DNA from: Candidatus Hadarchaeota archaeon
GTDB lineage: Archaea > Hadarchaeota > Hadarchaeia > Hadarchaeales > Hadarchaeaceae
Assembly (NCBI GenBank): GCA_964514965.1
Contig: CAZETV010000001.1
Coordinates: 889,239-953,238, forward strand
Length of the DNA: 64,000 bases
Direction of reading: 5' to 3'
Shown piece after piece: positions 17,946-46,520 of this stretch. Under the pieces are notes generated by a model. That model did no database searches and had not been told where the DNA came from. It saw only the letters and a program-made list of their open reading frames with translations. Every line of letters starts with the position of its first letter. The stretch's first letter is position 1. The position numbers were made by a program, and so were the translations under genes.

Positions 17946-18581
17946 CTAGATTTTTGGTAGCTTCAGCAAGTCTGGCCGCGTCTTTAGGACGAAGCTAATT
18001 ACCGAAATGGTGATGGCGGCCTCGATGATGCCGATTATTACGTGGATTCCTACCATTGCCGGCAGAGCTATCCCAAGAGGCGAAGTTCCTGAAGCTGCTA
18101 ACTCAAATGCGCATGCCGCCGACGCGAGCACCACAGCGATCCAAGCAGCGACGCCAGCTCCAATAATCATGCCTCTGTCCCCTTTCACAGCTTTTTTAAC
18201 ACCCTGGTAGATGAAATAGCCAAGGATGGTGCCAATAAGCCCCATGTTGATGATGTTCGCGCCCATCGTAGTTATCCCTCCATCTTGGAAGAATATTGCT
18301 TGTACACCAAAGATTGACCCCATTACAATCGATCCAGCCAGCGGGCCGACAAAAACAGCGATGAGTACTCCGCCGAGCATATGTCCGCTGGTGCCGCCAG
18401 CTACTGGCACGTTTAACATTTGTGCTGCGAAAATGAATGCTGCTAGCACGCCTAGTAGTGGAACGTGCCTATCTCCAAGTTTTTTATTAGTCCTCCAAAC
18501 TGCGACGACCAGAATCAGCATAGCGACTACCCACAATGGTGCCCATACCGCAACGCTTAGAAATCCATCTGGTATGTGCAT
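17946..18581 (-). CDS. cbiM: Cobalt/nickel ECF transporter substrate-capture component CbiM/NikM
   Basis: Start set to ATG at 18581 giving the N-terminus MHIPDGFLS; the ORF-track start at 18680 would abut the nikR start. Confidence 0.8.
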   Translation of the reverse strand: MHIPDGFLSVAVWAPLWVVAMLILVVAVWRTNKKLGDRHVPLLGVLAAFIFAAQMLNVPVAGGTSGHMLGGVLIAVFVGPLAGSIVMGSIFGVQAIFFQDGGITTMGANIINMGLIGTILGYFIYQGVKKAVKGDRGMIIGAGVAAWIAVVLASAACAFELAASGTSPLGIALPAMVGIHVIIGIIEAAITISVISFVLKTRPDLLKLPKI

Positions 18582-18597
18582 AATGGCCCCATCTGGG

Positions 18598-18627
18598 AGT
18601 AATACTTTTTGGTATAAAAATATTACT
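18598..18627. promoter_or_regulatory. Candidate NikR operator: AGTAATA-N16-TATTACT
   Basis: Perfect 7-bp inverted repeat with 16-bp spacer, in the 97-bp divergent intergenic region between cbiM (start 18581) and nikR (start 18679); the spacer contains a TATA-like GGTATAAAAATA. Confidence 0.45.
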
Positions 18628-18678
18628 GTCATAGATAACTTGAAAAACACTTGGCAACGAAGTTTGCAGGGAGTTGGC

Positions 18679-19083
18679 ATGCCGAAAAAGATAACGCGAG
18701 TGAGCTTGACGTTGCCTCAAGATTTGTTGGATGAGCTCGATTGCTCTCTTAAAGCTCAAGGTTATACAAGTCGTTCGGAGGCGATCCGTGATGCTTTACG
18801 AGATTTTTTGGCGAGCTACAAGTGGCGCAAGGAGCTTAAGGGCGAACGTATCGGGGTCGTAATACTAGTGTACGAGCACGATGTCCGAGGGCTGATTGAC
18901 GCACTCATGGATATCCAGCACGTGAGTTCGAGTATAATAAGCGCAGTCCAGCATTTGCATGTCGACGCCAAAAACTGCTTGGAAACACTGATTGTCAAGG
19001 GCCCCTCAGAGGAGATCCGCAAGCTTGTCGATCGCTTGGGCGCCCTGCGAGGCGTCAAACAGGTCAAGCTGGTGGTTGTTTGA
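18679..19083 (+). CDS. nikR: Nickel-responsive regulator NikR
   Basis: 134 aa; N-terminal ribbon-helix-helix (KITRVSLTLPQDLLDELD...GYTSRSEAIRDALRDFL) plus C-terminal ACT-like metal-binding domain with His/Cys (EHD...HVD..C). Start taken at ATG 18679, not the 285-aa ORF-track extension. Confidence 0.8.
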   Translation: MPKKITRVSLTLPQDLLDELDCSLKAQGYTSRSEAIRDALRDFLASYKWRKELKGERIGVVILVYEHDVRGLIDALMDIQHVSSSIISAVQHLHVDAKNCLETLIVKGPSEEIRKLVDRLGALRGVKQVKLVVV

Positions 19084-23698: not shown

Positions 23699-25117
23699 TT
23701 AGGAGTTTTTCCATTTCTCTTTGACGAATTTCGATATTCCCGAGGAGTCCCGGGGCCCTACCATAACTTCCCACCCGGTCTCGTCTTCGATCTCCCCCGA
23801 AAGCCTTGCGGCCATCCCCGGGATTATGAGCTTTTTGTGTTTGACCATTTTTTCTACGCCGGATTCCTTGACGACCTCGGCCACCTGCTTTGCGGTCAGC
23901 TTTCTACCGGCAACGGCGCTCTCAAGAGATATCCCTTCGGAGTCGGCCACGAGCAGGTAGCAATCGATTTTAGCGGCCTCGATATCCCCAGAGACGATAT
24001 AATATGTCAGGGCGAAGTTGCTCGTCACGAAAACGGGGGATGTTTCATTTGGATTGCCTATAGGCCTCAATCCGGGTTTGACCGAGACGGGCTTTCTAGG
24101 GTCTGTGTACATGTTGAATCTTAGCACGACGTTCGGCAATAGGGTCCAGCCCTCTAAACTGTGCATTATCAATATGTCTGTATACCTCTCTATCAGCATG
24201 GCCGCCACGAGCGCCTCTCGCCAAGCCTTCGATTGACCTTCCCCATTAGATGATGCCCACGCGGTTATCGGGGTTCCCATCAAGGGAAAACCGGATAGTT
24301 TATCTTCTTCGTTGCAAGCCTTCCATCGGAGCATCGTGAGCGCGTTTATGGTTGATGATAGACCTTCGCCGGAAAATGTGCCTGGGTCGATCACCAAGTT
24401 TTTCACACCATAGTCCAAGAGCGTTTTGGTCAGGGATCTTAACGTGCCCAAGTCATTCGGGCTGGAAACGGTCAAAGGACACTTATGCTTTAAAGAGAGC
24501 TCGGCCATCTCCTTCCAGTTATCCTTCGTTGCCGCGTAGAGAAGGGGGCTACTATCCCCGATTGCCGATAATCCTGCCTTCATGACTTCCGGGTTCAACG
24601 AACAGAGGACAAGGGGTAGGTTCGTGTTATTGCTCACAAATTTCACGATTTTCCCGAATTTTTTTGGTTCGTTTGAAACCGATCTAACGGCCAAGGCGTC
24701 GAGAGTTAGCTCCTTTCCTATGTAAGTGTAATCGAAATTTTCAACGAACTTGATTCTTTTCATCAACTCACTTTCACTCATTTCATCGGTTACATCGAGG
24801 GCGATCGTTGTGGGGTTAAAGTAAGTTAGTTCGTGCCTATGCATGACGAATTCTCCCCCGATCTTTGCCACTTTGCCCTTGTTCCCGAATTCCACCTCGT
24901 TCACGGATGGGCTCAGCATAACCTTCAACTCCGAGTAATTCTTCTTGTACTTTTCATCCTCCAAGAGCGGGGAGCACTTTTCGATTTTTGTCTCCATGTT
25001 CACGAGTCCCACTGCGAAGGCCATGCAGTTTTCCGCTCCGCACTTCTTGCAGTTGGTCCGCGGGAGCAGCGTGTAAACTTTGATTGGGCTAATGTTCTTC
25101 TTAGGCACTTCAACCAC
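23699..25117 (-). CDS. cdhE: CODH/ACS gamma subunit (corrinoid Fe-S protein large subunit)
   Basis: N-terminal 4Fe-4S motif (CKKCGAENCMAF) and TIM-barrel corrinoid-binding region; 472 aa. Confidence 0.85.
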   Translation of the reverse strand: MVEVPKKNISPIKVYTLLPRTNCKKCGAENCMAFAVGLVNMETKIEKCSPLLEDEKYKKNYSELKVMLSPSVNEVEFGNKGKVAKIGGEFVMHRHELTYFNPTTIALDVTDEMSESELMKRIKFVENFDYTYIGKELTLDALAVRSVSNEPKKFGKIVKFVSNNTNLPLVLCSLNPEVMKAGLSAIGDSSPLLYAATKDNWKEMAELSLKHKCPLTVSSPNDLGTLRSLTKTLLDYGVKNLVIDPGTFSGEGLSSTINALTMLRWKACNEEDKLSGFPLMGTPITAWASSNGEGQSKAWREALVAAMLIERYTDILIMHSLEGWTLLPNVVLRFNMYTDPRKPVSVKPGLRPIGNPNETSPVFVTSNFALTYYIVSGDIEAAKIDCYLLVADSEGISLESAVAGRKLTAKQVAEVVKESGVEKMVKHKKLIIPGMAARLSGEIEDETGWEVMVGPRDSSGISKFVKEKWKNS

Positions 25118-26294
25118 CTAATTTCGCCGATGTCCAGTCGGGGATCTCCCTCGCTACCCCATTTTTGAGTAGATAATCGACGATTTCTTTTACAGTTTTC
25201 ACGGATGTTGGATGAAGCATCATGAGGTAATCCGCGCCGGCCAAGAGCATGGACAAAGCCGTTATAGTTTCCCATATGGGCCCTCTGATTTCCTTCGGGC
25301 CCCATATTGGTTCCATCTCCAACCAGGCCTCTCTGGAAGCCCAAGCGTTCGATATCCCAGAGACCAATGGGTGCTGAAGTTCTTGGTCACCTTTCAGAGC
25401 TGCAAGCCTAGCCCGCTCCGCGATGGTGAACCCATATTCAAGACCATAACCTATCCCTGCGCAATTCGTGTCCATAACTATTTGGTTCTTTGATAGATAA
25501 TCGTATAGCCTTCGGTTGAGCTCTCTAGCCTTGTCCAAGTCCATCTGTGTGAAAGCGATGGCCACATGCCCATGCTCTTTGAATGGTTTGCTTGCTTTCT
25601 CGATATCCATGTCCAAGTTGAGAGAGTTTATCAGGAGCCTTTCGCCAGACCCCGCCTCGGCTACTTTTTCAAATACCTCAACATCTTTGGCGGGATTTCC
25701 AGAACCTCCCACGCATAGCGGAACCTTAATGGCTTGGAGAACTTCTTCGATTAACCTCGCCGAGTCTCGAGGAGAAGTGTCTTTAATGTACGGATCCGTG
25801 CTCACCAAGTGTAGGTTAACCATATCTGCGCCGTATTTTTCAACACATTGTTTGGCCCACTCAGGGGGATCTTCTAGCGCATCGCCGAAATAGCTCCTGA
25901 CCGCCCCGGGGAGTGTGATTTTCATGTCGAACACATCCATAGATATCACTGGACGGTGCACCATGGAGCCCTCGAACGTGTAGAATGCCGCTGTAGTCTC
26001 GCCCCCTATGATGTAATTCCTGTCCCGCGTCCCCTCATCGTTCACCTTGGCACCCAGTGTGACTTCGGGGATTTTTCCGACCCACTCGGTTTTCGGAAGA
26101 CTGAATTCGGCCTTGGCCAACTCAGTCGGTTTTACTTTGGTGGGGATAACTCTGTGGAGGGTTGGGAGCATTTTTAATGCTAGTTCTTTAACATCGATTG
26201 TAACGTCTTCCAGCTCAAGCTCTTCATACTTTGACAAATTTCCAACTAAACTGTCGCTGAGTTTTTTGGCGAGGTCATCTTCTTTTTTTGCCAT
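25110..26294 (-). CDS. cdhD: CODH/ACS delta subunit (corrinoid Fe-S protein small subunit)
   Basis: 394 aa TIM-barrel protein between cdhC and cdhE. Confidence 0.8.
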   Translation of the reverse strand: MAKKEDDLAKKLSDSLVGNLSKYEELELEDVTIDVKELALKMLPTLHRVIPTKVKPTELAKAEFSLPKTEWVGKIPEVTLGAKVNDEGTRDRNYIIGGETTAAFYTFEGSMVHRPVISMDVFDMKITLPGAVRSYFGDALEDPPEWAKQCVEKYGADMVNLHLVSTDPYIKDTSPRDSARLIEEVLQAIKVPLCVGGSGNPAKDVEVFEKVAEAGSGERLLINSLNLDMDIEKASKPFKEHGHVAIAFTQMDLDKARELNRRLYDYLSKNQIVMDTNCAGIGYGLEYGFTIAERARLAALKGDQELQHPLVSGISNAWASREAWLEMEPIWGPKEIRGPIWETITALSMLLAGADYLMMLHPTSVKTVKEIVDYLLKNGVAREIPDWTSAKLGG

Positions 26295-26315
26295 CTCATC
26301 CCTCTAAAGTAATGA

Positions 26316-27695
26316 TTACTCTTTTTTCTTTCGTCTTCGAATGATGACTTTTTCGGCATGGATTTTCGCGTTTTTAAGGATGATGGTAAAGCCGCCAGTC
26401 GTTGGTATTGCGATCTCCCCGGTCGATTCAGCAGGTACGGGCTCGTTGACCTCAGCTGGTGCAGCAACTTCTGGCGTGGCCTTCCAGCGCTCGGTGACTG
26501 GGTGTGTATGTGTCTCAAGGAACCCCTTTAAATCATCAATTGTTCCTACGTCTTTTTCGGTCGCGATTTTGTCCACAACCTCGGCAGGTATGAAATTCTT
26601 GACTCTCTCTTTTATCACCGCGGGCATCCAGACTATACGGTTCCATCCTCCGTCCACTTGGAGAAACTTGGGAGACCTCATGTACTCAATCGACACACCG
26701 TGGAAACCATCGACTTGCCGTCCCCCCGCAGTTGAATCAGCCATTGCCGAAAATGTCAATCCATTAACGGCCGATCCCCTGAAATCTCTGTGAATCAATC
26801 CAATCCCATCCACTTCAGGAATGTAGAACGCTGTCCCTTCAAAGCAGCCACATGATGTGTGAGGGTGATCAAATGCCGTGTATAACTGCACTCTGTCATA
26901 CTCCCCGAGCGTTTTTTCCTTCACTATTTTGTTAACACCTTCGAATTCGCCTGCAAACTCGTCGATGGTTTTTCCCTTTTTTATTTCAAAGATTGAACCC
27001 TTGGGATCAACTCGCGCGGCGGCCCTTCCATCGAACCAACTTATGGCACCGCAATTGGCGTATCTTTGTGGGGTTATTATGCAAACGTGAGTTGGAGCGA
27101 AGGATTGACAAAGTGTGCACCCGTAAAAAACCTCAACATCGCCGTCCTTCAATCCTCGAGCCCTAGCATCGCGGGCCTCGTAGATTTTGAGGGCCTCGGA
27201 GTGCATTTCCTGTACTTTCGAGGGGTCCGTGATGAAGGTGATTTGTATTTTTTCGATGATTGGCAATTCACTTCTGTATAACCTTTCCAAGACTTTTCCA
27301 ATCAATTGAAGAGTCAATCCTTTTTTGACTGACTTTTTGCTCACGCGGAACCAGATGTCATAACGCTGGTTTAGGTGCATGAACCCCTCGATGTAGTTGC
27401 AGAAATCGTGGATATGCCTCTCGAAGACTCCTTCCATCTCCTCATCGAGTTCATTGCCGGCAACTTCGATGTAGATTCCAAGTGGGACAGAACTCCCTTC
27501 CTTCAAATCCTTGAGTTCCGGGCCTATTACGGTGATTTTTCCGTCCTCAACATCATCCTTTACCCGCAAAAGTTCAAATTTATAATTTACTTTAGTTCCA
27601 CCGAACTCTACGTGCATGTCTGGCTTCCGGATTCTCTCTCCCTCGTATATCACTCCTACATCTACTGGGATGTCTGCAAACATGCCAGTTTTCAT
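26316..27695 (-). CDS. cdhC: CODH/ACS beta subunit (acetyl-CoA synthase, A-cluster)
   Basis: 459 aa with A-cluster cysteine region (CTLCQSF...C, HTSCGCFEG). Confidence 0.85.
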   Translation of the reverse strand: MKTGMFADIPVDVGVIYEGERIRKPDMHVEFGGTKVNYKFELLRVKDDVEDGKITVIGPELKDLKEGSSVPLGIYIEVAGNELDEEMEGVFERHIHDFCNYIEGFMHLNQRYDIWFRVSKKSVKKGLTLQLIGKVLERLYRSELPIIEKIQITFITDPSKVQEMHSEALKIYEARDARARGLKDGDVEVFYGCTLCQSFAPTHVCIITPQRYANCGAISWFDGRAAARVDPKGSIFEIKKGKTIDEFAGEFEGVNKIVKEKTLGEYDRVQLYTAFDHPHTSCGCFEGTAFYIPEVDGIGLIHRDFRGSAVNGLTFSAMADSTAGGRQVDGFHGVSIEYMRSPKFLQVDGGWNRIVWMPAVIKERVKNFIPAEVVDKIATEKDVGTIDDLKGFLETHTHPVTERWKATPEVAAPAEVNEPVPAESTGEIAIPTTGGFTIILKNAKIHAEKVIIRRRKKKE

Positions 27696-28228
27696 TTCCC
27701 TTCCACCTTTTGAGCAATTATTTCCAAATTTTCATGCCAATTTTTAAGCGAGAGATTTGGGAAAGACCAACTGCAATGTGGCTGATAAAATCTGTTTATG
27801 GAGATCGTCTTGAGGTTGGGAACAAAGGATTTGAGCCCAGATTCGATTACCCATTCCATATAATATGGGATTCCTAAGAGCAACGCGAGGTCGTGGGAAC
27901 TTCCTTCACCAGAAACGCTCCACTCCGGGTCGGTGAGTCTAGTACCTATATCCATCGCGGACATCCAGGCATCTGGCTGAAAATCCCTCTTAAGGAACTC
28001 CGCAACAGTTTGAGCAGTGGCAACTACAGGTATTTTCGCAGCTCTTGCGATGCGAATGACATAATCGATTGGCTTTTTATTCCCCAAATCTACTTCAGCA
28101 GCCTCATGCCCGACGATGAAAATCGGACGTTTGGCTTTCTTTATCATCGTGGAGGCAACTTCCGGATTTTTAATCACGAGGGCCTTTTTCGGACCAGGAA
28201 TTTCAGCTTTCTGCCAAGGCTCGGCCAT
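27692..28228 (-). CDS. cdhB: CODH/ACS epsilon subunit
   Basis: 178 aa protein between cdhA and cdhC, the conserved position and size of the epsilon subunit. Confidence 0.7.
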   Translation of the reverse strand: MAEPWQKAEIPGPKKALVIKNPEVASTMIKKAKRPIFIVGHEAAEVDLGNKKPIDYVIRIARAAKIPVVATAQTVAEFLKRDFQPDAWMSAMDIGTRLTDPEWSVSGEGSSHDLALLLGIPYYMEWVIESGLKSFVPNLKTISINRFYQPHCSWSFPNLSLKNWHENLEIIAQKVEGK

Positions 28229-28230
28229 GT

Positions 28231-30573
28231 TTATTCCTTCTTCGTTCTGATGAGTCTATGTATCAGTGTGGGATCTGGAATTTCGCTCTCCTTCCAGCCC
28301 TTCTCTTTGAGTACTCCTATTACCTCATCCTTCATCGTAATTGGGATGTCGCCGACTGAACGCACAAATAAGTGGATATCTTCGGGTAAGATTCTGTAAA
28401 GCCTCCTGTGCAGATCAATGTAATGATTCAGCTTTATTGCTCTACCTTTAGTTGTGTCGTTGGGCCTCATGCAAAGTTTGGGTATCATTACCATTGCTTC
28501 CTCTTTTGTCTCCGCCGTGCAGAATAAATGTTCAGGCGTCGGTCCTACATAAACGCGCTTCCCTGAGCGAGCGTCAAGCACATACCAGTCCTCCTCACGA
28601 TCTTCCCTCCCCAAGAGCATGCGTCTATATTTAGACCCGTGTGGGCCGACGATGACCGGAATACCCAGCCGCCAACAACCGCTGGCTATGGAAGCGGCCT
28701 TTTGGGACATAGCCCCCCAAGCTACACCAACCGCACCAACCCGATTGTGTATATAGTCTGCGATTTCCTCGTAATTTGCACGGAGCTTACGCTTAGCGAA
28801 AATGCTCGCTATCTTGATCGCGGCCCCTGTTATGTGAGAATTGGCGACACAAGAGCCAACGTTGACGAGCCCGCCGGCATCGAACACGCCGGAGTATGTT
28901 TCGTAAAGGCCGATCCCTTCCTCATTTTTATAATTCGCGATACTCATGGCGGAGCATCCCGAAGTTGTTATAATGTAGCGGCGCTTTGCGAATTCATTGA
29001 CCATGTTTCCAACATCTTTCCAGCTACCCGGATAGTTCGAGCAACCTACGAATGCCACGATTCCAGGTATCTCACCCAAGACTATTGGAGAACCCACCCG
29101 CCTTATTTCTACATCTTGGATCGCGCCCCTGCCAACCCGAATTTTACTCTTTTCCTCTTTGATCTTCGACCTCGATGCTCCGACTATCATGGTGTGTGGG
29201 AGCAAATTTTGGGGGCAGACCCACTCGCAACGCCCACAGCCTATGCAAGAATCGTAGAGGTCCGCGAACTTCTGTAAGTCCCTTTTAGCTGCTGCCTCCA
29301 TAGCTTCGGGAATGAGCAAATCGTTTGGACAGGCCCGCCTGCATGCATCGCACTTCGTGCATCGCTGTGCTGCCTTGATTATCTTCCCTTTCGCTGGAAC
29401 CACTTTGAACTTGTTTCGTTTTGGAGCTACTTCAATCGCTACTCTAACAGCTACTTCTCCAACCTTTTCTGGATCGACGATAAACGCGCCAGGGCTCTTC
29501 CCTTCCACGAGATCTCTCACTATTTCATCCGCTGGATCCAAAGTTCGGTTGGGCAACCCTTGAGAATTCTTGGGGTTCGTCGCAATCAGAGGTGCCTTGA
29601 CCTTCTGAGCTTCAATGAGCACATCCGCACGAATGCATTGCTCATCGGTCACGATAACATCCGGGATCCCGTTCCTCACGAATCTTAGTTGCCAAGAGAG
29701 TGGCCCAACTATCTTGGCCCTCGAATGATGTCTGGTGATATCATGAGCTGTACAGCATAGCCCACAGAGCTCTACGTTTTCCTCAAGCCCCCTTTCTTTT
29801 AAGTAATCCATTATCCCAATTGCAGGCGGGACGTTGTGTCCGATGACTAAGATAACTGGCTTGGATGCATCGATGGAACCCATGCCTATTTCAGCGAGCG
29901 GAGCTTCTGGGTCAGCTTTTGGAAAACCGTAGGTCGAAATTTGCGCTATATCTGCTATCTCCATGGCGACATGATCTATCATGCCAGCATGGAACACTTT
30001 GGACTCAAAATCTAGATTGTTGCCTTCTTGCCCCGTATGGGTGGCAGAAAGGAGTTGGACGATTTCAGTCTCGCAGTAATCGAGAGCATCCTCCAAGTCT
30101 CCAAGCCTTCTGGGCTTGATACCCGTTACCAAGCGGAGGTGAGGGGCCTCAACTTCAACATTTTCCTCCCCCACGTTGATTGGATAATCTCGGCCATATT
30201 TCTCCATCAAATGGTCGAATAAGTGTCTGGCGTGACCGCAATGGGTTGCTGCCCCTATGCAACACGCTAGCAAGACGATGCGTGACTGCTGTGCCGACAT
30301 GTCGAGCCCGCATGCCCCTCGCTTTCCTTGGCTCAGATCGCACTTACCCATCGTGCATAGGCAACAGAGATCGCAGAACGGTAGATAAAATGGTTTGTAT
30401 TTATTTAAGAGCTTGAGATCCCATTCCCTCAGGGCCTCCATCTCAGGCATAGGAGTTGGACCAGCCTCTTCCTCCCACTCCTCTATAATTTTTCCTATGG
30501 TTAACTCGAGGCCTTTTGCCTTCACGAGGCCTGTTTCAAGTTCATCAAGTTTGATTCGCGCTTTGGAGCCCAC
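28231..30573 (-). CDS. cdhA: CODH/ACS alpha subunit (Ni-Fe CO dehydrogenase catalytic subunit)
   Basis: 780 aa with N-terminal Cys-rich cluster region and internal two-4Fe-4S ferredoxin insert (CTKCDACRRACP, CIGCGRCEWVCP), typical of archaeal CdhA. Confidence 0.9.
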   Translation of the reverse strand: MGSKARIKLDELETGLVKAKGLELTIGKIIEEWEEEAGPTPMPEMEALREWDLKLLNKYKPFYLPFCDLCCLCTMGKCDLSQGKRGACGLDMSAQQSRIVLLACCIGAATHCGHARHLFDHLMEKYGRDYPINVGEENVEVEAPHLRLVTGIKPRRLGDLEDALDYCETEIVQLLSATHTGQEGNNLDFESKVFHAGMIDHVAMEIADIAQISTYGFPKADPEAPLAEIGMGSIDASKPVILVIGHNVPPAIGIMDYLKERGLEENVELCGLCCTAHDITRHHSRAKIVGPLSWQLRFVRNGIPDVIVTDEQCIRADVLIEAQKVKAPLIATNPKNSQGLPNRTLDPADEIVRDLVEGKSPGAFIVDPEKVGEVAVRVAIEVAPKRNKFKVVPAKGKIIKAAQRCTKCDACRRACPNDLLIPEAMEAAAKRDLQKFADLYDSCIGCGRCEWVCPQNLLPHTMIVGASRSKIKEEKSKIRVGRGAIQDVEIRRVGSPIVLGEIPGIVAFVGCSNYPGSWKDVGNMVNEFAKRRYIITTSGCSAMSIANYKNEEGIGLYETYSGVFDAGGLVNVGSCVANSHITGAAIKIASIFAKRKLRANYEEIADYIHNRVGAVGVAWGAMSQKAASIASGCWRLGIPVIVGPHGSKYRRMLLGREDREEDWYVLDARSGKRVYVGPTPEHLFCTAETKEEAMVMIPKLCMRPNDTTKGRAIKLNHYIDLHRRLYRILPEDIHLFVRSVGDIPITMKDEVIGVLKEKGWKESEIPDPTLIHRLIRTKKE

Positions 30574-30706: not shown

Positions 30707-30997
30707 TTATTTTTCGGTTTTTGCACTTTTAGCTATTTTTTTAAGCTCTTTCGCCCTAGAAGGGGTTATAAGTTTTCGTTTTTCTAGATCTTCGATGCAT
30801 TTCAATGCATATCCACACCAGGTGACACATGAAGGCGTTGCCTCTCTATGCAACATTCGCCCACAATTATAACATTTTACTTCGGTCTCGTAGCCCAAGA
30901 ATTCTACTTCTTCACCGCAGGCTGGGCAAGTTCGCACTGTTATTTTTGGCTCCACGAGTTCCTTAGCACCCGGACATCTCTTCAGCATTTTTCCCAC
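30707..30997 (-). CDS. Cys-rich zinc-ribbon-like small protein (96 aa), unknown function
   Basis: Eight Cys in CxxC-type pairs (CPACGEE, KCYNCG, SCVTWCGYALKC) and a basic C-terminal tail; sits 133 bp upstream of cdhA on the same strand. Confidence 0.4.
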   Translation of the reverse strand: MGKMLKRCPGAKELVEPKITVRTCPACGEEVEFLGYETEVKCYNCGRMLHREATPSCVTWCGYALKCIEDLEKRKLITPSRAKELKKIAKSAKTEK

Positions 30998-31117: not shown

Positions 31118-31897
31118 ATGGAAAAGAAGAGGTTGGTTTTAGCCATCTCAGGAAAGGGCGGGGTGGGCAAAACCACTTTGGCCGCTTTAATGCTGAAAAT
31201 CTTAACCGAAAAAAAACAAAAAAGTATCTTGGTCATCGATGCGAATCCCGACTCAAATCTCTCCAATCTCTTAGGGATTTCTAATGGTAAAAAAACAGTT
31301 GGGAACGTAACGGATGAGCTGAAGAGGTCCCTCTGGAAAGGCGAAATCCCGCCAAATGTGATGAAGAAGGATATTCTCGAATACCACATTTTTGAAATTT
31401 TGGAGGAAACTCCGAATTTTGATCTATTAGTAATGGGGAGGAGTGAGGGTGAAGGATGCTATTGTTTGTTGAACAAGCTCATCGCAGATATCATCGACAC
31501 GCTCTCTAAAAATTACGACTTGACGATAATGGACGAGCATGCGGGGCTAGAGCACCTAAGTCGAAGAACTGATCGGGATGTTGATGTAATGATAATCGTC
31601 ACAGATCCTAGCTCCATGGGATTTCAGACGGCGCGGAGGATAAAGGAGCTAGCTAAAGAGGTCCACATCGAGTTCAAAAAAATCTACCTCGTGGGGAACA
31701 AGTTCACGCCTGAGATGGAGCAGATGCTAGAGGACGAAGCAAATAAAATAGGCGTCGAATATGCTGGTAATATCCCGCACGACGACGATGTTCTCAGATA
31801 TAACCTCACCGGGCGACCGTTGGTTGAACTGCCGTCCATGAGCCCGGCCTTGGTGACGGCGAAAAACATCTTGATACGGATGGGGCTTTTGGGCTAA
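31118..31897 (+). CDS. cooC: CO dehydrogenase nickel-insertion ATPase CooC/AcsF
   Basis: Deviant Walker A (GKGGVGKTT) and MinD/ParA-like fold; divergent from the cdh operon. Confidence 0.8.
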   Translation: MEKKRLVLAISGKGGVGKTTLAALMLKILTEKKQKSILVIDANPDSNLSNLLGISNGKKTVGNVTDELKRSLWKGEIPPNVMKKDILEYHIFEILEETPNFDLLVMGRSEGEGCYCLLNKLIADIIDTLSKNYDLTIMDEHAGLEHLSRRTDRDVDVMIIVTDPSSMGFQTARRIKELAKEVHIEFKKIYLVGNKFTPEMEQMLEDEANKIGVEYAGNIPHDDDVLRYNLTGRPLVELPSMSPALVTAKNILIRMGLLG

Positions 31898-31952: not shown

Positions 31953-32681
31953 TTATTTTCTGAATTTTTGTAGTTTTTTTAGCAGCTCCTTGTCACCTTC
32001 ATAGTCTCCAGCGCAAGTCGCGATTATGCCATCTACAAGACCATCCAATTTCGCTGCGTATTCTTCAACACGATCCATAGTCGTTGTGCTTGGCCACCCG
32101 ATTATCTTTAAAATTTCCTTATTTTTGGGGGTTCCTACAAGGAAGTAAGAGTACAAGGGTTTGTTTAGACGTTTACACTCTTCAGCTATTCGCTCCAGTA
32201 TGGGGAAGGACTTATCTTCAAGTCTCATGAAACATATGAAATCCCATGCACCCCCCACTCGGGCAATACTTTCTTCCGCGGATCGGCGTGCTGTAATCAA
32301 GCAGCCTAACTTTAGATCTTTTATATGCACCGTTGTGCGTAAGAAATTTCGGGCTTCCTCGGAGGATTTTAACATTTTTATGGGCTCTCCGTGCTTGGGG
32401 ATGTCGCCCATAGAGAGCACGATTCCGTCAAGACCTATAGCATCTGCAGCTAGAGCCAGGCCCCCGGCTTCAACCGGGCCCTTATAGTGTAATATGAAGA
32501 TGGGTATCACCATTTTGTCTGGGTATTTAGTTTTGAGGATGCAGCCCACAACCGTCCCGCTGGGTGCCGGCATGCCTGCGGCGCTATCCGTGACGTTCCA
32601 TCCATCAACCAAATCATGAGTTTCTTCGGCAAGTTTCAGAAAATCGCGCGTTGGGACAAACTCGTGTAATATCCTCATCAC
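31953..32681 (-). CDS. MetF-like methylene-tetrahydrofolate/H4MPT reductase family protein (short form)
   Basis: Segments EFVPTRD, VTDSAAG and IVLSMGD align by eye with E. coli MetF segments EFFPPRT, VTYGANS and IVALRGD; only 242 aa, shorter than canonical MetF. Confidence 0.5.
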   Translation of the reverse strand: MMRILHEFVPTRDFLKLAEETHDLVDGWNVTDSAAGMPAPSGTVVGCILKTKYPDKMVIPIFILHYKGPVEAGGLALAADAIGLDGIVLSMGDIPKHGEPIKMLKSSEEARNFLRTTVHIKDLKLGCLITARRSAEESIARVGGAWDFICFMRLEDKSFPILERIAEECKRLNKPLYSYFLVGTPKNKEILKIIGWPSTTTMDRVEEYAAKLDGLVDGIIATCAGDYEGDKELLKKLQKFRK

Positions 32682-32951
32682 AATCCCTAAGAAGGATATT
32701 GGTTGGGATTAAAAAATCTTTTGGGCGCAATCACAATCGTTCTTTATAAACCTTGAGTGGTTCATGGCTTTGCTAATAAACTCCCCGATCACCCCGACTT
32801 TATTAGCAGAATCGACTTTATGAGCAAAGCCGTGGTTCATCCCTCCGAAATACGGGAAGGACCGCAAAGCCTACGATTCGGGAAAGCTGGGGGGGAAAGG
32901 CATAAGTCAACATACTTTACCACGCTCAAGTGAATAGGGTGGGCGTCTGCC

Positions 32952-40959: not shown

Positions 40960-41030
40960 AGAATCCCAAGCGTAAATTTTTGGTCTGAATTTATAAATGC
41001 GAGAGTGCCAATAAATTTGGAGGTTTGGTC

Positions 41031-41858
41031 ATGGTTCAAAGGGTGAGAGTAGGATTAGTTAAGATGGGCAACCTCGGCACTTCTGCCATGTTAGATCTGA
41101 TGCTCGATGAGCGGGCGGAAAGGGAGGACATCGACTTTAGGGTTGTGGCATCTGGGCCGAAAATAACCGAGGAGGACTGTAAAGGGGTTTCTGAAAAAAT
41201 TCTTGATTTCAATCCCGAACTAATCATAGCAATAAGCCCAAATCCTTCCGTTCCGGGACCTTCGAAGGCCAGAGAAATCCTCAAGAAATCTGGCAAGCCT
41301 TGCATAATCATCGGCGATGCCCCAGGTACTAAAATCGCCGGAGAACTTGAGAAGACAGGTTTTGGCTACATATTCGTCGAGGCGGATTCCATGCTTGGCG
41401 CAAGAATGGAATTTCTTGACCCTATCGAGATGTCGCTCTTTAATGCGGATGTAATCAAGGTTCTTTCAGTAACCGGCGCTTTCCGAGTTGTTTATGAGGA
41501 GGTTGATAAAGCAATCGAGGGCGTGAAGTCTAGCAAGCCCTATTTGCCGAAGATAATTATCGACCGTGATAAAGCTGTAAACGCCGCCGAATTTGAAAAT
41601 CCCTATGCGCGTGCGAAGGCCATGGCAGCTTTTGAAATAGCGAAAAAAGTTGCAGACGTAAGCGTTGAGGGCTGTTTTAGGGTCAAGGAGAAAGAGAGGT
41701 ACATACCGATTGTGGCGGCGGCGCATGAGATGATGAGGACGGCCGCAAAGTTATGTGACGAAGCTCGCGAAATAGAAAAAAGCGAGGACTCTGTGCTAAG
41801 GAGGCCGCATGGAAGAAAAGGCGAACTCCTCTCGAAACGAAAGCTTATGGGAATCTAG
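41031..41858 (+). CDS. mtd: F420-dependent methylene-tetrahydromethanopterin dehydrogenase
   Basis: N-terminus MVQRVRVGLVKMGNLGTSAMLDLMLDERAERED matches the Mtd family; GGAGGT Shine-Dalgarno 8 nt upstream of ATG 41031 (ORF track began at an upstream TTG). Confidence 0.85.
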   Translation: MVQRVRVGLVKMGNLGTSAMLDLMLDERAEREDIDFRVVASGPKITEEDCKGVSEKILDFNPELIIAISPNPSVPGPSKAREILKKSGKPCIIIGDAPGTKIAGELEKTGFGYIFVEADSMLGARMEFLDPIEMSLFNADVIKVLSVTGAFRVVYEEVDKAIEGVKSSKPYLPKIIIDRDKAVNAAEFENPYARAKAMAAFEIAKKVADVSVEGCFRVKEKERYIPIVAAAHEMMRTAAKLCDEAREIEKSEDSVLRRPHGRKGELLSKRKLMGI

Positions 41859-41860
41859 AA

Positions 41861-42967
41861 TTGGCACTCCTCGGTACTAAGTGCGGGGATTCTTGTACGC
41901 TCATTAATAGAGGGGCACTAAAATTGTTTGGAATAGGGATGAAAGGAAAACCGCTGGAAGGTGACATGGTAGAAACGGCGGATAACATTATTTTCGATGT
42001 TAGAGGACATACCCATCCGCCCGGAAGGGTCATTGCTTATCCCAAGTACGTGTCAGATTTGAGAGGGAACTTGAGGCGTGGCGAAACCACTTTTCGGAGG
42101 GTCCGCACCTTTCAAGATTTGCATGATGCAATTGAGCAGTTGGATTCAAAGTATTTGATTTACGATCCTGTTTTCGGCGAAAAATTATGCGAAGTTTCGG
42201 AGGAAGGTATAAACTATCACTATAGACCCAGCGACTGTCTGTCAGAGCTGCGACGTAAAAAGGAGCTGGACAAAGTCGAAAATGAGGCACTTTCCCTGCT
42301 TCAGCTCATGAAAACGGAAGCCAAAGTTCCGTGGAACAAGCTAGGACTTTCTGGGTCAATACTTACGAAGCTCTACACAATCTCGTCTGACATTGATCCC
42401 GTTGTTTATGGATTGAAGAACTGCTGCCGAGTATACGCGAGCATAATGCAGTTGTTGGAGGATGGGGAAATAGAATTAGAGAAGGTGAAGGAGGAAGAGA
42501 AGAAGGAAGATTATAAAAAAGAAATTCGTTCCGGAGAGTTGGATAAATCTGTAGTCTCTTATGAAGATTACATGCGCGTGGAAATGAGAAAAACCTTTGT
42601 GGGGCGGTTTGGCGGTCGGAAGTACTCCATAAAATTCGTCAAGGATTGGGGTGAGGTAGAGAGTACCTATGGGGTGGTTAAGTGTACTCCAAGAGGAAGT
42701 GTTAGAATAAAGGCCAAAATCGAGGACGATTCGGATGCAATCTTCATGCCAGGCGCCTATAAGATTTGTAACGTCAAGCTCTTGGAGGGGCCAGATTTTG
42801 TGCCAGTGGAGATTTTATCAGTTCACTTAAGGTTCTGTGAACAGGCAAAAAGGGGCGAAACTGTTATCGCGCGGGGAAAGCTTGAATCTGTACAGCGGAG
42901 AAGTGGGGACGAATATTATAGGCTCGTCCTTGGGAACGAGGCTTCAGACTACATGATTTTAGTTTGA
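41861..42967 (+). CDS. Uncharacterized protein with central Pol-beta-superfamily nucleotidyltransferase motif
   Basis: 368-aa ORF starting 3 nt after the mtd stop; contains GS-x9-DxD signature (LGLSGSILTKLYTISSDIDPVVYG) about 150 aa from the N-terminus, flanked by unrecognised N- and C-terminal domains. Confidence 0.4.
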   Translation: MALLGTKCGDSCTLINRGALKLFGIGMKGKPLEGDMVETADNIIFDVRGHTHPPGRVIAYPKYVSDLRGNLRRGETTFRRVRTFQDLHDAIEQLDSKYLIYDPVFGEKLCEVSEEGINYHYRPSDCLSELRRKKELDKVENEALSLLQLMKTEAKVPWNKLGLSGSILTKLYTISSDIDPVVYGLKNCCRVYASIMQLLEDGEIELEKVKEEEKKEDYKKEIRSGELDKSVVSYEDYMRVEMRKTFVGRFGGRKYSIKFVKDWGEVESTYGVVKCTPRGSVRIKAKIEDDSDAIFMPGAYKICNVKLLEGPDFVPVEILSVHLRFCEQAKRGETVIARGKLESVQRRSGDEYYRLVLGNEASDYMILV

Positions 42968-43004: not shown

Positions 43005-43877
43005 TCAATGAGTTAAAACGTGATCGATTATCTTTTTGGTTATACTTACTTTTGTCGTGGATTGGAGACCTTTCCACCCAGGAATGGCGTTGACCTCAGT
43101 AATGAAGAACTCGTCATCCCGTTCAACGATGTCCACCCCGGCGTACTCACATCTCAAGATTTCTGCCGACTTTATCGATGCTTCTTCTAGCTCTCCACGT
43201 AATTCACATGGCTCGACTCTCGCTCCCTTTGAAAAGTTAGTCTTCCAGCTTTCGCCGACTCTCTTCATTGCCGCTATAACTTCATCCCCGATAATGAAAG
43301 CCCTTATATCCTCGTTGCGATGAGGAATGAACTCTTGGACGTAATACACATACCTTCCAAATTCAAGGGCCGTAAAAACTCTATATGCTAGGTCCCGATC
43401 ACTCACTCGTACCATCCCCGCACCCAAAGAGCCGAAGAGGGGCTTGACTATCACGTCCTTGAACTCCTCGAAGGCCTTCATGGCATCGTCATGCTTTTCG
43501 GTAACGATAGTCTTGGGGGTCGGGATTCCCGCATCTTCCAACAAAGAGCACGTATAGAACTTATCCGCACATCGCTCTATGGCGATTGCAGGGTTCAGTA
43601 CCTTTACTCCCAAATTCTCCAGCCTGTGAAGCGTATCCATTCTGAATATCAGCTGTTCCGCTGATCCTTTCGGCACCCATCTGACAATTAATGAGTCGAA
43701 CTCATCAAGATCGTGACCACAACATGAGACGCGTGGCTTTCCGCTCAACTTTGCGACTAGGTAAGAAAGAGGAAAGGTAAAACAGCTGATTTTTCTGCTT
43801 TCTATTTCTTCCCTCAACTGCTCAACATTCCAGTCATTTTTACCTGAGGTAAAAATTCCGATTTTCTTCACACGCAT
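43005..43877 (-). CDS. mptN: RimK-like ATP-grasp glutamate ligase, probably tetrahydromethanopterin:alpha-L-glutamate ligase (MptN) or CofF-like
   Basis: 290 aa RimK-type ATP-grasp (VIVKPLFGSLGAGM, EVNAIPGWKG); last gene of the fwd-ftr-mch operon. Confidence 0.55.
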   Translation of the reverse strand: MRVKKIGIFTSGKNDWNVEQLREEIESRKISCFTFPLSYLVAKLSGKPRVSCCGHDLDEFDSLIVRWVPKGSAEQLIFRMDTLHRLENLGVKVLNPAIAIERCADKFYTCSLLEDAGIPTPKTIVTEKHDDAMKAFEEFKDVIVKPLFGSLGAGMVRVSDRDLAYRVFTALEFGRYVYYVQEFIPHRNEDIRAFIIGDEVIAAMKRVGESWKTNFSKGARVEPCELRGELEEASIKSAEILRCEYAGVDIVERDDEFFITEVNAIPGWKGLQSTTKVSITKKIIDHVLTH

Positions 43878-44809
43878 GCACCCAGTGATTTCGCCAGCAC
43901 TTCCTCGTCAATGCTTCCGGCATGAAAAACTCTTCCGGTCCTCAGGTTGTTTATCGTTACTTCGGCGGGGGAGAAAAGTTTTGGATCGATCTTGAAGAAG
44001 TCCCTATCATATTTTTCGAAGAGTTCAAGGAATGGCAGGCCGTAGTCCTTGGAGGCGCGTGAGGGAATTTCATCGATCACCTTCTCAACCTCAGAGTCGT
44101 CAGCATCCACGAAGTACATCGTCCTCCCACCGTAGAGCACACAGTCGTTGGTTTTCCCCATCGCTTCTAGATCGTTTTTGGTCACTGGCGCTACGGGAGC
44201 ACTTCCGCTCCCGCAGATTATCTCGCCTATATCGAACCCGACCTCATGTAGCTTGTGCACGCCGGTTTCCACAATTCTCGCTGATATCTGGATGCTCCCA
44301 ACAATGCTTGCAGTCGGGGCAGCCAAGATGTAGAGACTATCGGGCTTCACCTTGCATTTTTGGGCGATGAAATCCGCTACCTTTTCGTTTGGTATTTTTC
44401 TAGTCTCGAGCGTGATGACCGCTTTCTCACACCTATCTTCATATTTCAATTCTCGGAACAGCTTTTCCTCCACCCTCGCCAGCGCCCTCGCGGGACCCGA
44501 ACCCATCGCGAAGTAATCTTCAACTTTTATCGCCCACCCAGCAAATTGAGAAGCCATGCATGATATCGCGGGATGGTCCACGTTCACATGGACATAGGGC
44601 CTTTTCTCCATGCAAAGACTAACGCCGCCAAGACCCCCTAGACACGCCTCTGAAAAAAGTTTGCCAGCTTTAAGGCTCCCCTGCACCTTGATTCCAGAGT
44701 CGATCACTACTGCCCCATTTTTTAGTTTGAGGACTTTGACCCCCAGTTCTTCCTCACTTTGAGTCATCGCGTCTGCTATTTTTGAAGCTCTTTCGTTCAC
44801 GCTTATCAT
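43868..44809 (-). CDS. mch: Methenyl-tetrahydromethanopterin cyclohydrolase
   Basis: 313 aa with the Mch family N-terminus (ISVNERASKIADAM) and conserved core. Confidence 0.85.
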   Translation of the reverse strand: MISVNERASKIADAMTQSEEELGVKVLKLKNGAVVIDSGIKVQGSLKAGKLFSEACLGGLGGVSLCMEKRPYVHVNVDHPAISCMASQFAGWAIKVEDYFAMGSGPARALARVEEKLFRELKYEDRCEKAVITLETRKIPNEKVADFIAQKCKVKPDSLYILAAPTASIVGSIQISARIVETGVHKLHEVGFDIGEIICGSGSAPVAPVTKNDLEAMGKTNDCVLYGGRTMYFVDADDSEVEKVIDEIPSRASKDYGLPFLELFEKYDRDFFKIDPKLFSPAEVTINNLRTGRVFHAGSIDEEVLAKSLGACV

Positions 44810-45627
44810 GTCGCGCCTCCTTTCCAGATCAGTATCTCCCCCTTCCCTAGGGCGGCAATATCTCCGTTATACCTATCGTAGAAACCCTCGATGTGTTCTT
44901 TTTTGACAGGTAAATCATATTTTTCCAGTCTTTTTAGGAAGGCTCTGATGAAAGTCGGTTTGTAGGTGCAACTATATCTGAAGGTCGGCAGTAGCTTCGG
45001 GGGATTGAAGGCTATGATGGTTCCCCTATCCATCCCGGCTCCCGCTTTCTCCCCGATATCGCCGGAACAGACTATTGACCCACCTGTCATGAGTGCGCCG
45101 GTTAAGTTTCCTAGTTTGCCTTTGATGACGATTGCGCCCCTTCTCATCAGTTCTCCGACCTCGCGTCCGGCATCGCCTTCAATTATAATCATTCCGCCCT
45201 TCATTCCGACTTTAGAACCCCGGTAACCCGAACCAACGAGGTTTCGGGCGTTCCCTCTGACCCTTATCAGCCCCCCTTTCATCTCGGCCCCGAGCCAATC
45301 CCCAGCGTTTCCGTGAACGAGTATCTCTCCTCCTTGCATCTCCCGACCAAGGTGCATTCCAGCACTCCCCTCGATTACCAACTTGCCTTTGCTCATCCTT
45401 GCCCCAATATGCTTGACCGCGCTGACATCGCCAGTGATAACTATCTTCTCAGTTCCATCCGATTCCTGTTCGATATTGAAGATATCAGTCAATCTTTTCC
45501 TTCGGTTTCCCCACAAAAGCTCGAGACTTTTTAGCTCCGCCACAGACTTACCAGAAAATACATCGGGTGAGATGCATTCGGCCTCAACCGGCACCTTAAA
45601 TTTGACTTTAGGTTTGAGGATGATCAT
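44806..45627 (-). CDS. fwdC: Formylmethanofuran dehydrogenase subunit C
   Basis: 273 aa beta-helix protein with repeated G-x-x-G-x-x-M/L-x-x-G repeats (GNAGDWLGAEMKGG, GDAGREVGELMRRG). Confidence 0.8.
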   Translation of the reverse strand: MIILKPKVKFKVPVEAECISPDVFSGKSVAELKSLELLWGNRRKRLTDIFNIEQESDGTEKIVITGDVSAVKHIGARMSKGKLVIEGSAGMHLGREMQGGEILVHGNAGDWLGAEMKGGLIRVRGNARNLVGSGYRGSKVGMKGGMIIIEGDAGREVGELMRRGAIVIKGKLGNLTGALMTGGSIVCSGDIGEKAGAGMDRGTIIAFNPPKLLPTFRYSCTYKPTFIRAFLKRLEKYDLPVKKEHIEGFYDRYNGDIAALGKGEILIWKGGAT

Positions 45628-46520
45628 CGGTTGCCCTCGAAGAGTTTGTGGAGGTAGACCAAGTGTTTGCCCAGCTTGCCCCCATAGTTTCCGGCAGTTA
45701 TGAGCTTTATCCCGTCCACACTACAGGCTTCTTCGATTCCCGCCTTCGTGGCTTTTTTCACGCTTTCTCCGTCCAATCCGTTTATCACTATTTCTAGGAC
45801 GGAGTTGACATCCTGCGGTATCTTGCTTTCCACTACAGATCTCAGGGTCGGACAATATGCGGTATTCGTCGAAGCCCTTAGGAACTTGTACTTCGACCCG
45901 ACCTTGCTACCGCTCCTTACTACACCGCCGGGAAATGGAGTTATCACATTTTTGATTCCTTTTATAGCTTCGACTGCTTTCTCCGCGGCCTCAAGCACGC
46001 AGTCGGCATCTCTCCCCAAGATGAGGAAGTTACCTCCTCCCACGGCTTTTCGGACTTTGAACTTTTCCTCAACTAAAAATTCACCCTCCATGGCGGGGAT
46101 TCTCCAAAACCTCCTGCCGTCGATCCGCTTGGCAATTTGATAGCCGTCCCCGAAAAATCTCAACTTCCCACCAATGTTTATTTCCTTCTCCCCTTCCAAG
46201 TTGTTGAAACAGGCCGTTGTGGGACAAGTCATTATGCATTGACCAACCCTCCGCATGAGCTGGTCCTCGAGGGTCTTTTCGGACATGGCTAAAACTAGAA
46301 TGTTCGCCCCCGGTCTTCCATCTGGGGTTTCTTTGACTCTCACAAGATTCTCTATCCCAGCTTCAGCCCCGCACGCTATGACTGAAGTGGCAAATCCCGT
46401 GGTGGTGTTCGTAGCGTGCAAAGCCCATTTTTTGTTTTTCGCCGTTATCAACAAGCGTGCCGCTACCATATCGAAGGCTTCGGCAAATGTATCTTCTATT
46501 TCCACTCCGTTTATCTGCAT
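45624..46520 (-). CDS. ftr: Formylmethanofuran--tetrahydromethanopterin N-formyltransferase
   Basis: 298 aa with the Ftr N-terminus (MQINGVEIEDTFAEAFDMVAARLLITA) and length typical of Ftr. Confidence 0.9.
   Translation of the reverse strand: MQINGVEIEDTFAEAFDMVAARLLITAKNKKWALHATNTTTGFATSVIACGAEAGIENLVRVKETPDGRPGANILVLAMSEKTLEDQLMRRVGQCIMTCPTTACFNNLEGEKEINIGGKLRFFGDGYQIAKRIDGRRFWRIPAMEGEFLVEEKFKVRKAVGGGNFLILGRDADCVLEAAEKAVEAIKGIKNVITPFPGGVVRSGSKVGSKYKFLRASTNTAYCPTLRSVVESKIPQDVNSVLEIVINGLDGESVKKATKAGIEEACSVDGIKLITAGNYGGKLGKHLVYLHKLFEGNR

Follow-up and report, generated by a model that had tools for sequence, protein, structure and literature searches.

A short MetF-like barrel protein as a candidate methylene-tetrahydromethanopterin reductase in Bathyarchaeia and related archaea

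A 64,000-nucleotide (64-kb) stretch from a Candidatus Hadarchaeota archaeon (contig CAZETV010000001.1, positions 889,239 to 953,238), referred to here as the window, encodes a short protein of the MetF (methylenetetrahydrofolate reductase, MTHFR) superfamily close to the operon for CO dehydrogenase/acetyl-CoA synthase (CODH/ACS). With moderate confidence, this protein is read as a methylene-tetrahydromethanopterin (methylene-H4MPT) reductase, a non-orthologous replacement of Mer in Bathyarchaeia and related lineages without mer, because it combines homology to MetF, a barrel fold, the retained catalytic Glu and Asp, and conserved gene neighbourhoods. The gene is located as follows.

31953 to 32678, minus strand: short MetF-like (MTHFR-superfamily) gene, 241 residues counted from ATG

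In the proposed scheme, Mtd would make methylene-H4MPT and the short protein would reduce this H4MPT-bound C1 unit to methyl-H4MPT, which would enter acetyl-CoA through CODH/ACS and its CdhDE corrinoid subunits, and methionine through MetE-like enzymes. The chemistry would be that of MetF, Mfr and Mer, with a protonation to the 5-iminium cation assisted by Glu7, followed by hydride transfer.

Bathyarchaeia are among the most abundant archaea of anoxic sediments and hot springs, and the claims made for their CO2 fixation and acetate production rest on the Wood-Ljungdahl pathway, many lineages having no recognisable enzyme for the methylene-to-methyl step. The short protein is a conserved, single-subunit candidate of 241 residues that annotation has missed (no Pfam, KEGG Orthology (KO) or NCBIfam call); databases list it as hypothetical (NCBI) or, in some JGI records, under the automatic name "5,10-methylenetetrahydrofolate reductase". 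Such a candidate turns the pathway gap into a simple experiment and alters the scoring of pathway completeness for hundreds of metagenome-assembled genomes (MAGs). If the assignment is true, a new branch enters the debate on convergence versus divergence of MetF, Mfr and Mer, and the protein might show coenzyme F420 or NAD(P)H in the former site of flavin adenine dinucleotide (FAD). The wider family, found beside split MetE, may explain how methyl donors are supplied for methionine synthesis in many Thermoproteota.

Likeness to MetF rises above chance only at the profile level, since single-sequence searches are null and family profiles match. The query finds 632 homologs at E ≤ 1e-3, the best 120 of which show 79–92% identity; no Pfam domain is precomputed for any of the 120 closest, and a validated E. 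coli MetF probe (tblastn) has no match in the 64-kb window. A search of 1.8 billion cluster representatives returned only 104 related clusters, about 60 of them full length (221–263 residues), and by this measure the short MetF-like proteins form a small separate family. In the alignment of 68 members used for profile work (A1), PF02219 (MTHFR) is matched individually by 38 members (best 2.8e-17), no other family recurs, and the profile finds Thermus MTHFR at 1e-5. Comparison of this profile by hhalign with an alignment of E. coli MetF and 19 archaeal MetFs gave 98.7% (E 3.6e-16) across the 172 columns that span beta1 to beta7, while the control, Mer with 16 luciferase-like F420 enzymes, gave 1.0% (E 0.053); PF00296 (luciferase-like) is matched neither by the query nor among the 68 members. 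The AlphaFold (AF2) model is a complete (beta-alpha)8 barrel with eight strands (pLDDT 97, pTM 0.93), for which Foldseek returns Mfr and MetF as top matches. A better match to a different TIM-barrel family was looked for and did not appear, and the profiles and the model identify the short protein as a true, very remote and shortened homolog of MetF/MTHFR and not a relative of Mer.

Three MetF segments picked out in an earlier, sequence-only reading of this DNA align in profile–profile comparison as had been proposed: HEFVP with SFEFFPP of E. coli (E7 = Glu28), NVTDSAAG with SVTYGANS (T31 = Thr59) and GIVLSMGD with HIVALRGD (G92-D93 = Gly119-Asp120). The estimate of a protein about 50 residues shorter than MetF was likewise borne out, the difference from E. 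coli MetF (296 residues) being 54–55 residues. What is missing is an N-terminal extension of 21 residues, the loop at beta5 and a portion of the alpha7-beta8 insert, roughly 55 residues together. The core kept family-wide consists of E7, P10, D26, G36, G92, D93, P95, G126, R141, D147, F148, Y179, T184 and N187. Within it, all members of the query clade and 64 of 65 main-family sequences have E7, and R141, aligned with the invariant Lys172 of MetF, retains a basic residue. Glu28 of MetF serves as general acid and Asp120 holds the pterin in place, and mutagenesis has identified the Glu and Asp equivalents as catalytic in MetF, Mfr and Mer (PMC11094777).

The query clade (Bathyarchaeia, Ignisphaera and Hadarchaeales; 49 sequences) differs from the other 65 clusters by seven fixed switches, P31T, P34A, H61I, R63I, D66Y, Q196W and S222T, which are natural candidates for determinants of substrate or donor specificity. 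The active-site alignment as a whole is mixed: equivalents of Glu28, Asp120 and Lys172 (as R141) are in place, whereas those of Thr182-Gln183, the beta5 loop, His88 and Arg118 are not. His88 and Arg118, which we take to be FAD contacts (no published contact list was found), have no equivalent in the query clade but vary in archaeal MetF too, and are weak evidence at most.

The gene content of the window, annotated for open reading frames (ORFs) of at least 150 residues, places the short gene among those of the pathway it is proposed to complete.

23699 to 30573, minus strand: cdhA-B-C-D-E, the CODH/ACS operon, proposed consumer of methyl-H4MPT (Pfam Prismane, CO_dh, CdhC, CdhD twice)
31118 to 31897, plus strand: cooC-type Ni-insertion ATPase (Pfam CbiA/ParA-type P-loop), convergent with the short gene
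41025 to 41858, plus strand: mtd, F420-dependent methylene-H4MPT dehydrogenase, which would make the proposed substrate (Pfam MTD, 2.8e-126)
43868 to 49386, minus strand: mch (43868–44809), ftr (45624–46520) and fwdC, fwdA and fwdB (within 44806–49386), the upstream steps of the H4MPT methyl branch (Pfam MCH, GXGXG, FTR/FTR_C, Amidohydro_3 and a weak Molybdopterin match)
49877 to 50941, plus strand: MetE-like gene (Pfam Meth_synt_2, 6.4e-11), possible second consumer of methyl-pterin

These ORFs include no Bac_luciferase/Mer-type gene, a validated Mer probe (tblastn) has no match in the 64-kb window, and neither canonical metF nor MetV is present there. The earlier statement that the window holds mtd, mch, ftr, fwd and cdh and lacks mer is therefore correct in every gene, and the reduction of methylene- to methyl-H4MPT is the only enzymatic step missing in the window between CO2 and acetyl-CoA. 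The window also encodes RACo and acetyl-CoA synthetase, methanofuran biosynthesis (mfnA, mfnB and mfnD-like), H4MPT biosynthesis (MptH-like, a DmrX-like flavoprotein with Fer4, GHMP kinase, DUF1464 and CitG), Ni/Co transport with NikR, and a four-subunit NAD(P)-linked [NiFe] hydrogenase (11653–15633).

Related loci were collected with one genome per GTDB species. The resulting 47 loci come mostly from hot-spring and subsurface Bathyarchaeia (74–87% identity), together with two from Ignisphaera and one from Thermoproteota at about 60%; the nearest outgroup cluster (55% identity) is Hadarchaeales. The target is better conserved than the CODH/ACS subunits of the same loci (CdhA 67–71%, CdhC 63–70%), and on this comparison the short gene is under strong constraint. 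The neighbours of the target are distributed as follows.

CODH/ACS within 10 kb: 25 of 47 loci
cooC-like genes nearby, lying between the target and cdhA: 27 of 47
cofE (F420-0:gamma-glutamyl ligase, 3e-79) within 3 kb: 20 of 47
cofD: 8 of 47
cofE and/or cofD: 21 of 47
nitroreductase-family gene: 7 of 47
split MetE pair adjoining the target: 7 of 47
mtd, ftr, mch or fwd nearby: 6 of 47
at least one of these neighbour classes: 34 of 47

A typical arrangement reads cdhCBA-cooC-cooC, two deoxyhypusine-synthase (DS)-like genes, a metallo-beta-lactamase (MBL) gene and cofE, divergent from the target. In L025, and also in L093 and L094, target, cofE, cooC, cooC and cdhA follow each other on one strand, and in Ca. 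Hecatella orcuttiae (L024) cdhCDE-cooC-cooC-target is followed by ftr, mtd, fwdBAC and mch. Beside the target in 19 loci lies a 64-residue ORF, which was rejected as a partner, as on inspection its sequence looks like an eL38-type ribosomal protein.

The distant main family (24–32% identity to the query; 21 metagenome loci) has neighbourhoods of its own. A split MetE followed by the gene is found in 6 of the 21 loci, and the order UbiA-like gene, family member, 5-formyltetrahydrofolate cyclo-ligase homolog in 9–10. Adjacency to the MetE pair is the only neighbourhood common to both deep branches of the family. The turnover of C1-loaded pterins, with MetE especially, is thus the family-wide association, and the links to CODH/ACS and F420 are specific to the query clade.

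The F420 link lends itself to another explanation, that the protein is an enzyme of F420 biosynthesis or repair whose barrel binds the deazaflavin head group and not a C1-pterin, perhaps filling a step to which no archaeal enzyme has been assigned. In 7–8 species the target stands in the order cofE (minus), target (plus), nitroreductase-family gene (minus), cofD (plus), and the archaeal pathway does contain one unidentified step, the lactate kinase CofB (PMC8498797). The step in question calls for a kinase, hardly to be expected of this fold, and the adjoining nitroreductase-family protein already explains the dehydro-F420-0 reductase. The association with cof genes is, moreover, confined to one sub-lineage of Bathyarchaeia; neither the window nor the relatives in Ignisphaera and Hadarchaeales nor any of the 21 main-family loci shows it, and the conserved residues are those that act on the pterin substrate in MetF; a role of this kind is quite improbable.

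In the window and in the Ignisphaera loci the target lies among genes of methanofuran and H4MPT biosynthesis (mfnA/B/D-like, RimK-like, HisA/F-like and ATP-grasp), where the protein could have another H4MPT- or methanofuran-related role, either in cofactor biosynthesis or in a non-redox binding and hand-off of methyl-pterin to CODH/ACS after the loss of reductase chemistry. The lost MetF motifs, the clade-specific substitutions and a structural neighbour, 3ijd, that simply binds 5-methyltetrahydrofolate would agree with it. A binding protein would not need the catalytic Glu, which is essentially invariant family-wide; DmrX-like and MptH-like genes, typical of H4MPT biosynthesis, are already in the window; and the MetE and MTHFS-like neighbours of distant members point to turnover of C1-loaded pterin and not to cofactor assembly. 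This role is accordingly improbable.

For carriers of the short gene, published annotation tables bear on the presence of mer. The MAGs JZ_bin_7, DGJ8_bin_44_34 and DRTY-6_2_bin_115 (loci L009, L010 and L039; 83–95% complete) carry the short gene and are scored mer (K00320) = 0 in columns 30, 32 and 33 of Data Set S2 of Qi et al. (2021; PMC8407382), who write of mer that it "was not recovered" and propose "an alternative and unknown complex"; by column order and the family sizes of that paper these MAGs are placed in Family-7.4. In families 7.2, 7.3 and 7.4 the counts are 18, 11 and 22 for fwdA and 18, 15 and 16 for cdhA, and only 4, 7 and 5 for mer. All 35 MAGs of Data Set S2 are scored metF (K00297) = 0. 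When the best 120 homologs each of archaeal MetF and of a Mer-like protein from locus L003 were inspected, none lay on the 1.45-Mb, 1.34-Mb or other long contigs that carry the short gene, and the assembly accessions of MetF or Mer-like carriers did not overlap with those of the short gene; both are weak tests.

The Mer-like protein (L003, 6844–7875, minus strand) is an F420-dependent luciferase-like oxidoreductase encoded 2 kb from the target. Its best NCBIfam match is Mer, over the full length, at 136 bits against a cut-off of 276 bits, and its homologs come mainly from Asgard archaea (Helarchaeota and Freyarchaeia); it may itself be a Mer-like enzyme of a divergent kind. As a conserved partner of the target it was rejected, since its score does not reach the Mer cut-off and no other locus of the 47 has it.

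These observations bear on the possibility that the short protein is redundant or purely anabolic, supplying methyl-pterin to MetE only, with Mer, a Mer-like F420 enzyme or MetVF elsewhere in the genome carrying out the Wood-Ljungdahl step. The MetE pair is the one neighbourhood that both deep branches have in common, some Bathyarchaeia possess Mer (PMC7886697; family counts above) or a MetVF adjoining mtd, the KO score of metF = 0 appears to miss archaeal MetF, and the L003 protein lies close to its target. The same L003 protein falls far short of the Mer cut-off and has no counterpart in the other loci, the long contigs with the short gene lack its homologs and those of archaeal MetF within the sets compared, and three MAGs with the gene are scored without mer. 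The dominant linkage of the query clade, furthermore, is to CODH/ACS and not to MetE. A paralog of this kind would catalyse the same reaction, differing mainly in its role in flux, and is rather unlikely.

MetF has been proposed before as a replacement of Mer, in ANME-1 (anaerobic methanotrophic archaea) and uncultured archaea in which it is always adjacent to MetV (Chadwick et al., PMC9012536), a proposal echoed by Zehnle et al. (PMC10322722). This ANME-1-type enzyme was found in Bathyarchaeia as a PF02219-positive protein of 307 residues, preceded by MetV with the motif CPKGMLNGPCGG (PF12225, CPKxxxNGPCGG); it has 60–64% identity to the Syntrophoarchaeum and Asgard versions and lies in divergent orientation to mtd, with NfnAB-like genes following it. 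Both enzymes belong to the MTHFR superfamily, occur in uncultured archaea including Bathyarchaeia, can adjoin mtd and are candidates to replace Mer on H4MPT-bound C1 units. The protein of the window, in contrast, has 241 residues, no Pfam match and no MetV, which rules out identity with the ANME-1-type MetF. Of the earlier suggestion of a MetF-like substitute for Mer, the methylene-to-methyl role is supported by context, while the protein is not the MetV-linked archaeal MetF already proposed. In L070 (10950–13199, minus strand) and L071–L077, genes for an NfnB-like (Fer4_20 and Pyr_redox_2, 465 residues) and an NfnA-like protein (282 residues) are convergent to metF of canonical MetVF; they may be the electron-supply module of the MetVF-type enzyme.

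A MetV partner was looked for: the window has none, and among the 47 loci MetV is present only in L047, where no intact copy of the short gene accompanies it. In the lineage of L047 and L078–L082, canonical metV-metF does stand beside a short gene, which there is a chimera of 234–240 residues, seen on four distinct contigs in separate assemblies.

L080, 146 to 868, minus strand; L078, 8420 to 9142, minus strand; L047, 9677 to 10399, plus strand; also L079 and L082: Mtd::short-MetF chimera

The two parts of the chimera, Mtd residues ~22–131 (55% identity to the Mtd of the window) and the last 132 residues of the short protein (73% identity), meet at an "ARxFL" microhomology. Only a half-barrel is left of the short protein, and the chimeric gene is divergent from metV-metF. 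A sister lineage has an intact mtd at the position of the chimera. L047 was therefore rejected as a case of an intact short gene coexisting with MetVF, and the short gene is truncated where the two systems meet. With MetVF present, the short gene seems to be decaying in the chimera, which is what non-orthologous displacement would predict; alternatively, the chimera may be a functional, new fusion.

Several points weigh against the assignment of the short protein as a methylene-H4MPT reductase. On its own the query fails all curated models, finding no match at all up to E = 10 in Pfam, NCBIfam or PDB sequences. Thr182-Gln183 of MetF is not kept, the aligned residues being F151-M152 (V-L in the family consensus), after which comes a conserved Arg (R153); Gln183 is a ligand of pterin N1/N8, and E. 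coli MetF mutated at this residue has a folate Km more than 250 times higher (PMC11094777). The beta5-loop motif around Pro157 is gone as well, with a shorter S/T-x-R in its place, and P31T, P34A, H61I, R63I, D66Y and Q196W replace residues that are near-invariant in the rest of the family, so that the clade switches could mean that the function itself, and not the substrate or donor, has changed. Among the 47 loci, 13 have no informative neighbour, some of these contigs being short, and the cofE/target/nitroreductase/cofD sandwich fits an F420-biosynthetic role equally well. No redox partner of the short gene (MetV, Hdr or ferredoxin) was found. The case for mer being absent genome-wide is built on the published KO tables of three MAGs that are 83–95% complete, and the score of metF = 0 in the same table looks unreliable: KO-based calls appear to miss archaeal MetF, because L073 (JAGTQF010000006.1, GCA_018396655.1), with an accession in the series of Qi et al. 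and unconfirmed membership among the 35 MAGs, holds a clear metV-metF pair.

Compared with the bacterial FAD-dependent MetF (E. coli 1zp3/1b5t, Thermus 1v93/3apt; PF02219), the reductase proposed here would carry out the same chemistry, methylene- to methyl-tetrahydropterin, with the conserved equivalents of Glu28 and Asp120 and an Arg for Lys172. It differs in its length, in the lost motifs named above and in falling below the Pfam and NCBIfam thresholds; its likely substrate is H4MPT and not tetrahydrofolate (H4F), and FAD binding is doubtful. In the acs clusters of acetogens metF adjoins CODH/ACS, a parallel to the placement of the short gene. Mer (1f07, 8qpl) belongs to another superfamily, the luciferase-like proteins (PF00296), and is ~80–100 residues longer, and the use of F420 by the short protein would be suggested by synteny only. 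The best Foldseek match is the mycobacterial, flavin-independent and NADH-dependent Mfr (7wmz, 8bgr), which has the catalytic Glu as well and sets a precedent for an MTHFR-like barrel that takes its hydride directly from a dissociable cofactor without a flavin. Mfr, in turn, has ~290 residues, is bacterial and H4F-specific, and conserves Gln177 where the short family has Leu or Met; beyond the common superfamily no specific sequence affinity is seen. The same holds for Cthe_2304 of Clostridium thermocellum (PDB 3ijd), a structural neighbour of 285 residues that is bacterial and uncharacterised, with no evidence of closer kinship. The replacement of Mer by a MetF is an already known idea; this short family, with its absence of MetV, its motif losses and its CODH/ACS, F420 and MetE neighbourhoods, appears to be undescribed in the full-text literature searched, which included few subscription journals.

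The lost active-site motifs and the lack of a MetV, Hdr or ferredoxin partner make it unlikely that the protein works as a classical ping-pong MetF with FAD and NADH or in a complex of the MetFV kind. As hydride donor, direct transfer from F420H2 is tentatively favoured, because cofE, cofD and nitroreductase genes flank the target in ~20 species, an F420-dependent Mtd belongs to the same cluster, and in Mfr a dissociable cofactor occupies the former FAD site (bioRxiv 10.1101/2022.11.18.516900). Alternative donors are NAD(P)H, as in Mfr, or a loosely bound flavin; NAD(P)H stays plausible because an NAD(P)-linked hydrogenase is encoded in the window. The unusual electron donor envisaged in the sequence-only reading has thus gained a concrete lead in the cof flanks and is still unproven. 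A bolder and somewhat doubtful proposal sees in the short family a third, independent way of reducing methylene-tetrahydropterin, an MTHFR-derived barrel without FAD or MetV that would take its hydride directly from F420H2, with the cofactor of Mer on the scaffold of MetF, and whose more conservative Thermoproteota relatives would be the unrecognised MetF of archaeal methionine synthesis.

The listed ORF of the short gene (31953–32681, minus strand) begins with GTG and has 242 residues, one codon beyond the ATG at 32678. This ATG is most likely the true start, giving a product of 241 residues, because homologs are mostly of that length and align from residue 2 of the longer ORF, an independent gene call of the identical sequence on a 45-kb metagenome contig (run SRR14802574) starts there, and it is preceded by TATA-like boxes and a Shine-Dalgarno-like motif, GGGA. 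The boxes, TTTTTTAA ~35 nt and TTTATAAA ~70 nt upstream of the ATG, are situated in the putative promoter region of the target.

32679 to 32951, no strand: divergent intergenic region between the target and fdhD, sequence read directly

Other features of the window and of the related loci were noted in passing. Directly after mtd, at 41861–42967 (plus strand), lies an ORF of 368 residues without a match in Pfam, NCBIfam or PDB sequences; a homolog (29% identity) adjoins mfnB and RimK-like genes in two Ignisphaera MAGs (L041 and L042), and its context suggests a methanofuran- or H4MPT-related function. Between cooC and cdhA, at 30707–30997 (minus strand), a 96-residue protein with eight Cys in CPxC-type pairs has weak, sub-threshold Pfam matches. 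It was considered as a MetV-like partner and rejected, having no MetV motif or match and being conserved only in the closest relative (L001). Ahead of the CODH/ACS operon in L007 (6012–9849, minus strand) and ~14 other Bathyarchaeia loci stand cofE, a metallo-beta-lactamase-fold gene, two tandem deoxyhypusine-synthase-family paralogs and two cooC-like genes, an odd but conserved set of passengers of the cdh operon. A stand-alone nitroreductase-family gene adjoining cofD and cofE (L007, 10743–12370, and 6–7 other loci) would fit a phosphoenolpyruvate (PEP)/dehydro-F420-0 route with a separate reductase, and not the classical 2-phospholactate route. Downstream of the [NiFe] hydrogenase of the window, at 10731–11669 (minus strand), a HycI hydrogenase maturation protease domain and a cyclic-nucleotide-binding domain are fused in one protein; the combination is unusual and may point to control of hydrogenase maturation by cyclic nucleotides. 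Lastly, the listed NikR ORF (18226–19083, plus strand) overlaps CbiM (17946–18680, minus strand) by ~450 bp, and its NikR domains begin at residue 158; the real start is probably much later than listed.

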